A DNA stretch of 40,846 bases from a virus (IMGVR_UViG_2630968414_000015), one strand, 5' to 3'; shown: positions 1,462 through 2,121, counted from the first letter of the stretch. Program-made: numbers and translations. Notes: a model not told the origin generated them from the letters alone.

Positions 1462-1500
1462 CGTGCATTAACAAACTCACCCGGCAGGGAAACCTGCCGG
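1462..1500 (-). terminator. Intrinsic terminator after the two-gene small operon
   Basis: Perfect 8-bp stem CCGGCAGG/CCTGCCGG with GAAA loop (1481-1500) directly after the stop of ORF 1510-1755; on the minus strand it is followed by GUGAGUUUGUUAAUG. Confidence 0.45.
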
Positions 1501-1509
1501 TCGGTATTG

Positions 1510-1755
1510 TTACATCATAGTACCGTCAGTTCCGGGCTGAACCGGCTCTGGTTGCTCTACGGGTTGAGGATCATTTTCCGTGCTGTTTTCAGCCGGAGAA
1601 CGGCCAACCATTCGGGCCAGCACTTCATCAACATATGCGTCGATTTGTGCCTCAAAATCCTTGCGAACCTGCGCCTTCAGCACGCGGTTCACTTCTTCAG
1701 AATAAAGTGCCTGTTTGACAAGCTCTTCAGTAACCGTGCCTTTAATCTCTGGCAT
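1510..1755 (-). CDS. Hypothetical acidic protein (81 aa), cargo
   Basis: ORF with AAGGAG 7 nt upstream of the ATG; Glu/Pro-rich C-terminal tail; no recognised family. Confidence 0.55.
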   Translation of the reverse strand: MPEIKGTVTEELVKQALYSEEVNRVLKAQVRKDFEAQIDAYVDEVLARMVGRSPAENSTENDPQPVEQPEPVQPGTDGTMM

Positions 1756-1790
1756 GAATATTCTCCTTTTGCAGGTATATTGCCCCGTTA

Positions 1791-1973
1791 TCAGAGCGGG
1801 GTCGGGTCGTTTGGGGATGACGGTGCCTGTGCTGTTTTACTGAGTTTTTCAGCTGCCGCATCATCAATTTTACGGCGAATATAATTTCTGATGACCTTAT
1901 AACCACCGCTCACCAGATATAACGCACTGACCACAGCGCAGAAATAAAGCAGCATTGTATGAACGAATGTCAT
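1791..1973 (-). CDS. Small membrane protein (60 aa), cargo
   Basis: ORF with AAGGTAAGG upstream; one predicted N-terminal transmembrane helix (MLLYFCAVVSALYLVSGGY) followed by a basic segment. Confidence 0.55.
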   Translation of the reverse strand: MTFVHTMLLYFCAVVSALYLVSGGYKVIRNYIRRKIDDAAAEKLSKTAQAPSSPNDPTPL

Positions 1974-2041
1974 ATAACCTTACCTTTGATATTGACTACA
2001 TAATTCGTTATCGGGTAAAAACATCGAAGCGACTGATAACC

Positions 2042-2066
2042 ACTCCTTCGGGAGTATTTTTATTTT
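2042..2066 (+). terminator. Intrinsic terminator-like hairpin, + strand
   Basis: ACTCC-TTCG-GGAGT hairpin followed by ATTTTTATTTT; oriented opposite to all neighbouring genes. Confidence 0.4.
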
Positions 2067-2085
2067 CCTTTATGGGTTAGGTAGC

Positions 2086-2121
2086 TCCCGCCAGCCATAT
2101 CATGACCGGCGGGATTTTTTT
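2086..2121 (+). terminator. Intrinsic terminator-like hairpin, + strand
   Basis: TCCCGCC ... GGCGGGA stem (15-nt loop) followed by TTTTTTT; overlaps the stop of the esterase gene fragment. Confidence 0.3.

Follow-up and report, generated by a model that had tools for sequence, protein, structure and literature searches.

In a stretch of viral DNA of 40,846 nucleotides (IMGVR_UViG_2630968414_000015, hereafter the window, with all positions counted from its first letter), the + strand elements located between the remains of a sialate O-acetylesterase gene and a gene for a DUF1378 protein most probably make up one gene for an antisense small RNA (sRNA), with a promoter, a 5' hairpin and an intrinsic terminator, which is linked to the esterase gene and stems from a lambdoid phage block. 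The window is an Sp18-type Mu-like prophage of Escherichia coli O157:H7. The first-pass annotation of positions 1,462-2,121 had described a two-gene cargo, encoding a 60-aa membrane protein and an 81-aa acidic protein, that is framed by three terminator-like hairpins and resembles either a type I toxin-antitoxin locus or an insulated moron. Both open reading frames (ORFs) are real and belong to the Pfam families DUF1378 and DUF826, respectively, and the three hairpins lie where they had been placed, the upstream two with T-tracts on the + strand. The two + strand "terminators", however, are parts of a single small RNA gene, one its internal stem-loop and the other its intrinsic terminator, and not insulators (Table 1).

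The promoter had been proposed as TTGACT at 2001-2006 and GTAAAA at 2024-2029. Such a pair is present, but 9 nt further to the left, with GTAAAA at 2015-2020, and conservation within the family favors TAAAAA, one position on and separated from TTGACT by 18 nt, as the better -10 element. The promoter is found in the leader of DUF1378, just upstream of the DUF1378 ribosome-binding site; the predicted RNA starts ~55 nt upstream of the DUF1378 ATG, and its transcription is directed away from that codon. The RNA form of the 5' stem-loop is ACUCC-UUCG-GGAGU followed by AUUUUUAUUUU, while the seven-T run behind the 3' hairpin overlaps the esterase stop codon (2120-2122), so that the sRNA is complementary to the esterase-DUF1378 spacer in any - strand transcript. 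Both hairpins are GC-rich stems followed by U-tracts, as in intrinsic terminators, on the + strand only; on the - strand they are preceded by A-runs. A terminator scan of 900-2700 returned eight terminator-like sites, including the + strand site at 2042, compared with 1.5 +/- 1.2 in shuffled sequences, and was unable to score the hairpin at 2087 because its loop is longer than 8 nt. The terminator-like layout is real and not due to chance. The element at 2042-2066 is an internal structure of the sRNA and possibly a leaky early terminator, and the U-rich stretch after its cUUCGg hairpin is a likely Hfq site. An Rfam scan of 800-2700 (E <= 10) gave chance-level matches only and no known RNA family.

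The same arrangement is conserved across phages. A DNA search of 1480-2140 against phages in distant mode found two Mu-like inserts only; the lambdoid copies are too diverged for blastn, and a protein-anchored search was therefore used. The resulting sample of 84 loci consists of 80 IMG/VR loci anchored on DUF1378 and four fetched earlier, while a profile search of genome contigs with the DUF1378 alignment yielded no confirmed locus. The 230 nt upstream of each DUF1378 start codon fell into 38 distinct sequences, every one of which contains the end of an esterase gene, and trimming from the -35 element to the T-run left 34 distinct versions, whose DUF1378 proteins are 45-100% identical. All 34 versions carry the promoter hexamers at a fixed spacing of 18 nt on the strand antisense to DUF1378. 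Columns 1-5 of TTGAC(A/T) are conserved at 97-100% and TAAAAA at 91-100%, whereas the spacer and the downstream columns are far less conserved (32-70%). The sRNA body is variable, ranging from 35 to 65 nt, and usually has a small 5' hairpin. At the 3' end, each of the 34 versions has a GC-rich hairpin and then a T-run of 5-8 on the antisense strand, which ends a few bases before the esterase stop codon. The 3' arms were misaligned in a MAFFT alignment of the sRNAs, and the hairpin versions were accordingly listed one by one instead of being counted formally by pairs. This listing has 17 distinct hairpins, all with a T-run behind them. Among them, one base pair is exchanged from A-T to G-C (CCGCCAG..CTGGCGG versus CCGCCGG..CCGGCGG), with the window copy as the A.C intermediate, and one version has a quite different stem (CTCCCGTCAGG..CCTGCCGGGAG). 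In a close variant of the first hairpin of the window (locus L011), the hairpin is kept through two register-shifting changes, and the copy of the 3' hairpin in prophage Sp5 of E. coli O157:H7 Sakai was scored as a terminator by the scan. The same type of sRNA gene is found in 933W/VT2-Sakai-like Shiga toxin (Stx) phages, directly upstream of DUF1378-DUF826 and the holin gene. In Sakai Sp5 (L090, 3004-4001), the insertion sequence (IS) IS629 interrupts the 3' part of the esterase gene and separates that gene from the antisense sRNA/DUF1378 region, which may explain the absence of a reported EcOnc peak for the Sp5 copy.

An RNA was also recovered from this locus in Sakai, where Hfq was crosslinked to RNA (Tree et al., 2014; PMC4104026). 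Its Table S2 lists EcOnc37 in Sp18 with a peak at 5077340-5077410 on the "-" strand, found in 5/5 datasets of crosslinking and analysis of cDNA (CRAC) and with a predicted Rho-independent terminator, and its Table S1 places the ECs4993...ECs4994 spacer (int_4968) 57th among the Hfq-bound intergenic regions, with reads on one strand only (PMC4104026). The Sakai "-" strand corresponds to the + strand of the window. Because the published coordinates come from an older Sakai record, their offset to the current record was estimated. It is ~0 at 1.18 Mb, which makes EcOnc52 span the sRNA unit immediately behind the stop codon of ECs_1088; ~140 at 1.27 Mb, judged from AsxR, which is described as lying 282 bp 3' of stx2AB, and from the end of stx2B at 1268347 of the current record; and ~140 at 2.24 Mb, where EcOnc51 has to coincide with the identical unit of Sp12. 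Overall, the record lengths of 5,498,578 bp (current) and 5,498,450 bp (old) give an offset of 128. Offsets of 128-140 put the EcOnc37 peak at approximately 2047/2059-2129 of the window, so that it begins immediately behind the first hairpin and extends ~10 nt beyond the T-run, the same geometry as that of EcOnc51 and EcOnc52. The short + strand RNA from the TTGACT promoter to the U-tracts, as the first-pass annotation had proposed, is therefore supported both by this Hfq-bound peak and by a promoter and a terminator that are retained in 34/34 versions. Full-text literature searches for EcOnc37 and for the locus tags ECs4993-4995 returned nothing useful.

Several points weigh against this reading. 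The -10 element TAAAAA is without the usual final T, and the fold of the whole RNA is unexceptional (z = -1.69). EcOnc37 is listed in Table S2 with no northern blot (PMC4104026), and its placement in the window depends on the inferred coordinate offset of 128-140 nt. The closest characterized counterparts, PasA (85 nt) and PasC (79 nt) of enteropathogenic E. coli (EPEC) E2348/69, are northern-validated, Hfq-dependent sRNAs (Pearl Mizrahi et al., 2021; PMC8550237), but an nhmmer profile of 33 family sequences (E <= 10) found nothing in the PasA, PasC, Sp4 or Sp12 loci; with sequence homology undetectable, the mode of action of PasA and PasC can be extended to the window RNA by analogy only. Finally, the hairpin at 2087-2113 is more stable in the sense RNA than in the antisense RNA (-23.2 versus -14.7 kcal/mol) because its A.C mismatch becomes a G.U pair, and consequently it may also act on the esterase mRNA.

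This last point could be taken to mean that the hairpins act on the sense (- strand) transcript instead, either by stabilizing the esterase mRNA at its 3' end or by serving as a site of processing through which the esterase and DUF1378-DUF826 are uncoupled, and the hairpin does stand directly after the esterase stop codon in every locus. The T-run, however, is always on the antisense side, while on the sense strand the stem is preceded, but not followed, by an A-run; most members of the family have long pyrimidine-rich loops that confer no advantage on the sense strand; and the conserved antisense promoter would be left unexplained. A role in the sense transcript in place of an sRNA gene is thus very improbable, although such a role is compatible with the sRNA gene and the two are not exclusive.

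The DUF1378 protein was weighed as a small membrane toxin, with the + strand RNA as the antitoxin that pairs with the 5' leader of the toxin mRNA and blocks translation or triggers cleavage. As a 60-aa protein with one transmembrane segment and a basic tail, DUF1378 resembles type I toxins in size and shape, and with an antisense promoter inside its leader in 34/34 variants the two are inherited together. Known divergent pairs, i.e., tisB/istR-1, zorO/orzO and shoB/ohsC, also contact the 5' untranslated region far from the start codon. A single N-terminal hydrophobic, transmembrane-like segment is found at residues 3-21 (Kyte-Doolittle 19-residue maximum of 2.02), and the protein has an isoelectric point (pI) of 9.3 with its basic residues in the C-terminal tail, while DUF826 is acidic (pI 4.34). 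Profile searches matched both proteins well above the Pfam gathering cut-off of 25 bits (DUF1378, E = 1.2e-38, 131.5 bits; DUF826, E = 2.8e-15, 56.7 bits), but only to families that PHROG lists as of unknown function (phrog_494 and phrog_311). DUF1378 matched no toxin family or defense model in Pfam, which gives DUF1378 only, PHROG or PADLOC, and the PADLOC and PDB sequence searches with either protein gave no matches. A consensus scan of 1974-2120 revealed no promoter-like site for DUF1378 on the - strand, and so DUF1378 is not a self-contained unit. It is instead the first gene of the DUF1378-DUF826 pair inside a phage late operon, with the esterase gene before it and DUF826 after it (PMC10462455); a DUF826 homologue was detected directly 3' in 70/84 loci.

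The RNA itself overlaps neither the ribosome-binding site nor the coding sequence of DUF1378, and since its complementarity is confined to sequence 55 nt or more upstream of the ATG, it can pair only with an mRNA that starts upstream of 2028. RNAduplex scores of the sRNA body against positions -25 to +21 of DUF1378 were no better than those of shuffled sequences (z from -1.5 to +1.3), and strong Hfq binding is more typical of trans-acting sRNAs. Moreover, the sRNA slot is filled in Sp4, Sp12 and the EPEC prophages PP2 and PP5, all of which are without DUF1378 or DUF826. With no promoter of its own, no toxin match, pairing equal to that of shuffles and a slot that is occupied where DUF1378 is absent, the likeness to type I toxin-antitoxin loci that had been noted from the sequence gained no positive support, and we consider a toxin-antitoxin pair unlikely. 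DUF1378 and DUF826 are rather a conserved pair of late-operon genes from families of unknown function, and they are probably membrane- or lysis-associated because they are located directly before the holin gene in lambdoid phages.

Insulation, in which the sole function of the + strand hairpins is to halt antisense read-through and the locus yields no discrete functional RNA, was the other possibility raised from the sequence. The hairpins are not directed against every neighboring gene, as had been claimed, given that ORF 1007-1471 is on the + strand and convergent with DUF826. The hairpin between these two genes, at the end of the DUF1378-DUF826 operon (1481-1500; loop GAAA/TTTC), is as strong as had been described, but it is no textbook terminator: its tails are T-poor on both strands and the terminator scan did not list it. 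Possibly it works as a weak terminator in both directions. As it has no good T-tract on the + strand, + strand transcripts from 1007-1471 could enter the cargo and be stopped at 2066 or 2121, and the block is an insertion relative to Mu, both of which would suit insulation. The two upstream hairpins and their dedicated promoter are nevertheless conserved in lambdoid phages that have no equivalent + strand gene upstream, and the RNA is reproducibly bound by Hfq. Pure insulation is accordingly a very doubtful explanation. The proposed "insulation of a moron" is half right: the block is DNA that Mu does not have, but its + strand hairpins came with it from lambdoid phages and were not added as insulators.

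That block can be delimited by comparison with phage Mu, where gin ends at 35673 and com starts at 35768, leaving a gap of 94 bp. In Sakai, whose annotation of the region reads "prophage Sp18, Mu-like phage", the gene order in the orientation of the window is mom, com, ECs4996, ECs4995, ECs4994, ECs4993 and gin, and the gin-com interval of Sp18 holds the esterase gene, the sRNA gene, DUF1378, DUF826 and ECs4996. Since the Mu gap is only 94 bp, the stretch from the esterase gene to ECs4996 is ~3.4 kb of cargo, i.e., additional DNA that separates genes which are neighbors in a related phage. The DNA of the esterase C-terminus is 85-87% identical to yjhS/nanS-p genes of hundreds of Stx phages, and relatives of DUF1378 with ~53% identity are found in 309 phage records, nearly all of Stx or lambdoid phages. 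VT2-Sakai and PhiR5_2 have the order esterase, DUF1378, DUF826, holin, with stx preceding the esterase gene in VT2-Sakai, and a published survey reports the same order in Stx phages (PMC10462455). Based on these matches and the shared gene order, the Sp18 cargo is a block that was transferred from a lambdoid (Stx-type) phage, in which it belonged to the late region.

Table 1. Features of the window in and around the predicted sRNA gene.
Feature	Position	Strand	Description and basis
mom	1-738	-	
com	692-937	-	
Hypothetical ORF (ECs4996)	1007-1471	+	phrog_26524; from annotation; convergent with DUF826; other edge of the cargo, beside com
Hairpin CCGGCAGG-GAAA-CCTGCCGG	1481-1500	both	8 bp, GC-rich; -17.8 kcal/mol on +, -17.1 kcal/mol on -
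DUF826 protein (ECs4995, WP_001114104.1)	1510-1755	-	81 aa; PF05696, phrog_311
DUF1378 protein (ECs4994, WP_000144787.1)	1791-1973	-	60 aa; PF07125, phrog_494
Promoter	1992-2021	+	-35 TTGACT 1992-1997, 18-nt spacer, -10 TAAAAA 2016-2021; position check and family conservation
Predicted antisense sRNA	2028-2122	+	~95 nt, matching EcOnc37; 5' end from promoter geometry, 3' end from terminator
Stem-loop ACTCC-TTCG-GGAGT (cUUCGg tetraloop)	2042-2055, with tail to 2066	+	-6.6 kcal/mol; followed by ATTTTTATTTT
Intrinsic terminator, stem CCCGCCAG/CCGGCGGG	2087-2113, with seven-T run 2115-2121	+	-14.7 kcal/mol on +
C-terminal fragment (DUF6645 domain) of NanS-p-like sialate O-acetylesterase (ECs4993)	2120-2566	-	PF20350, E = 9.5e-68

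Positions 900-2640 match E. coli O157:H7 C1-057 at 100%, and match Sakai Sp18 and ~168 other genomes at 100% outside an ISEc8 insertion (96% of the query in Sakai). In the window, the esterase gene is cut at ~2567, and only the C-terminal DUF6645 part remains beside the cargo. ISEc8, of the IS66 family, occupies 2567 to ~5010 with tnpA, tnpB and the gene for a 512-aa transposase, and splits a gene that is intact in Sakai, where it encodes 679 aa on the - strand, and in most other genomes. Because of this split, transcription that enters the sRNA/DUF1378 region from the esterase side is altered in the window strain. The same Mu-like prophage is inserted in yehI in C1-057 and in sorM in Sakai and is also found inside the Stx phage genomes LC727881 and LC727895, and all of these findings are consistent with recent transposition. 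At the com side of the cargo, the GATC-rich palindrome AATCGATCGACAAAAACGATCGATT (936-960), just upstream of com, was terminator-like in the scan; its position is that of the Dam/OxyR-controlled mom promoter region of Mu, and a regulatory site is therefore more likely here than a terminator. Inside the + strand ORF 1007-1471 are a 13-bp inverted repeat with a T-rich tail on the - strand (1164-1193) and a shorter in-frame ORF of 55 aa (1304-1471) with two CxxC motifs and a strong AAGGAG site. ORF 1007-1471 may be over-called, and the true + strand product may be a small zinc-ribbon protein.

Based on its architecture, we propose that transcription of the sRNA gene starts near 2028, proceeds away from DUF1378 and stops near 2121, with a fraction of the transcripts possibly stopping early at 2066. 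The resulting RNA of ~95 nt would be expressed in the lysogen and would consist of the cUUCGg 5' hairpin, a U-rich single-stranded linker for Hfq binding and the terminator. By analogy with what has been proposed for PasA and PasC, its most likely role in the lysogen would be that of an Hfq-dependent trans regulator of host and prophage mRNAs. In addition, as it is perfectly complementary to transcripts that cross from the esterase gene into DUF1378, the RNA might mark read-through transcripts of the - strand for cleavage and thereby lower the leaky expression of DUF1378-DUF826 and, in lambdoid phages, that of the lysis genes as well. A bolder version of this idea, which is rather unlikely to be right, is that the sRNA and DUF1378-DUF826 form a conserved gate before the lysis cassette of Stx phages, a switch against leakage and for lysis timing that resembles a type I toxin-antitoxin system. 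In lysogens, the sRNA would silence read-through into a DUF1378 that would act on the membrane and into the holin gene downstream; once the prophage is induced, late transcription modified by Q would run over the sRNA promoter and free both of them, and here the switch would have been carried into a Mu-like phage.

The Hfq-bound RNA at this locus, like the gene families and the kind of element, had been recorded before, and current understanding is for that reason unchanged. What is new is the defined anatomy of the sRNA gene and its universal linkage to DUF1378 in Stx-type phages, by which the previously uncharacterized CRAC peak EcOnc37 is tied to a gene with a promoter, a 5' hairpin and a terminator. 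This is of interest because prophage-encoded Hfq-binding sRNAs, such as AsxR, AgvB and the Pas RNAs, rewire host regulation in enterohaemorrhagic E. coli and EPEC.

Among known systems, tisB/istR-1, zorO/orzO and shoB/ohsC share with the window locus a gene for a one-helix membrane protein and, in its upstream region, a small RNA gene on the opposite strand. They differ in that DUF1378 has no promoter of its own, is part of a two-gene unit of a late operon and belongs to no known toxin family, while the RNA slot is tied to the 3' end of the esterase gene and not to DUF1378. The OOP RNA of phage lambda is likewise a short antisense RNA with its own promoter, and the intrinsic terminator at which it ends overlaps a convergent phage gene at the 3' end of that gene. 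OOP can bring about cleavage of the sense RNA. It is encoded in another region of the genome, has another sequence and other neighbors and is not known to be a major ligand of Hfq. Lambdoid phage morons (Juhala et al., 2000, cited in PMC4104026) are also extra DNA between genes that are adjacent in a relative, but a moron is a single gene with its own promoter and terminator, whereas the Sp18 cargo is a multi-gene block from another type of phage. EcOnc37 shares the prophage, the strand and the ECs4993-ECs4994 spacer with the window RNA; it was catalogued as a peak only, and its promoter, architecture and conservation across Stx phages are not part of that report (PMC4104026).

The closest likeness is to PasA and PasC and to EcOnc51 and EcOnc52, which have been named as homologues of PasA (PMC8550237). 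All are antisense sRNA genes of ~80 nt right after a SASA/NanS-p esterase gene, and PasA and PasC have been placed between sialic acid esterase and holin/lysozyme genes (Zhu, Shabalina and Storz, 2026, preprint, 10.64898/2026.05.13.724894). Both RNAs are antisense to late genes, with the end of PasC 2 nt from the esterase stop codon. As in the window, the 3' stem-loop and poly-U of PasC, EcOnc52 and EcOnc51 abut that stop codon, and PasA and PasC have a TTGACA -35 element, ~31 nt upstream of their reported 5' ends, and an A-rich -10 element. These RNAs are Hfq-dependent and expressed in lysogens, and the window RNA is likewise Hfq-bound (EcOnc37; PMC4104026). In Sakai Sp12 (L006, 3990-4190) and EPEC PP2 (L007, 2460-2740), two antisense sRNA units are arranged in tandem behind the esterase gene, the PasC-like one abutting the stop codon and the other, PasA, upstream of the first; a minor PasA form of 236 nt is explained by read-through of PasA to the second terminator of the tandem. 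The PasA and PasC loci differ from the window in that they are without DUF1378/DUF826 and continue with a holin gene or an IS element, and the window RNA differs in being longer (~95 nt) and in having an extra cUUCGg hairpin. A blastn-short comparison with PasA and PasC matched the T-run only, and MAFFT aligned the terminators only. The window RNA is thus not a member of the PasA/PasC family but a different sequence type of the same kind of element, and it appears to represent, beside PasA and PasC, a third sequence type of sRNA in the slot behind sialate-esterase genes.

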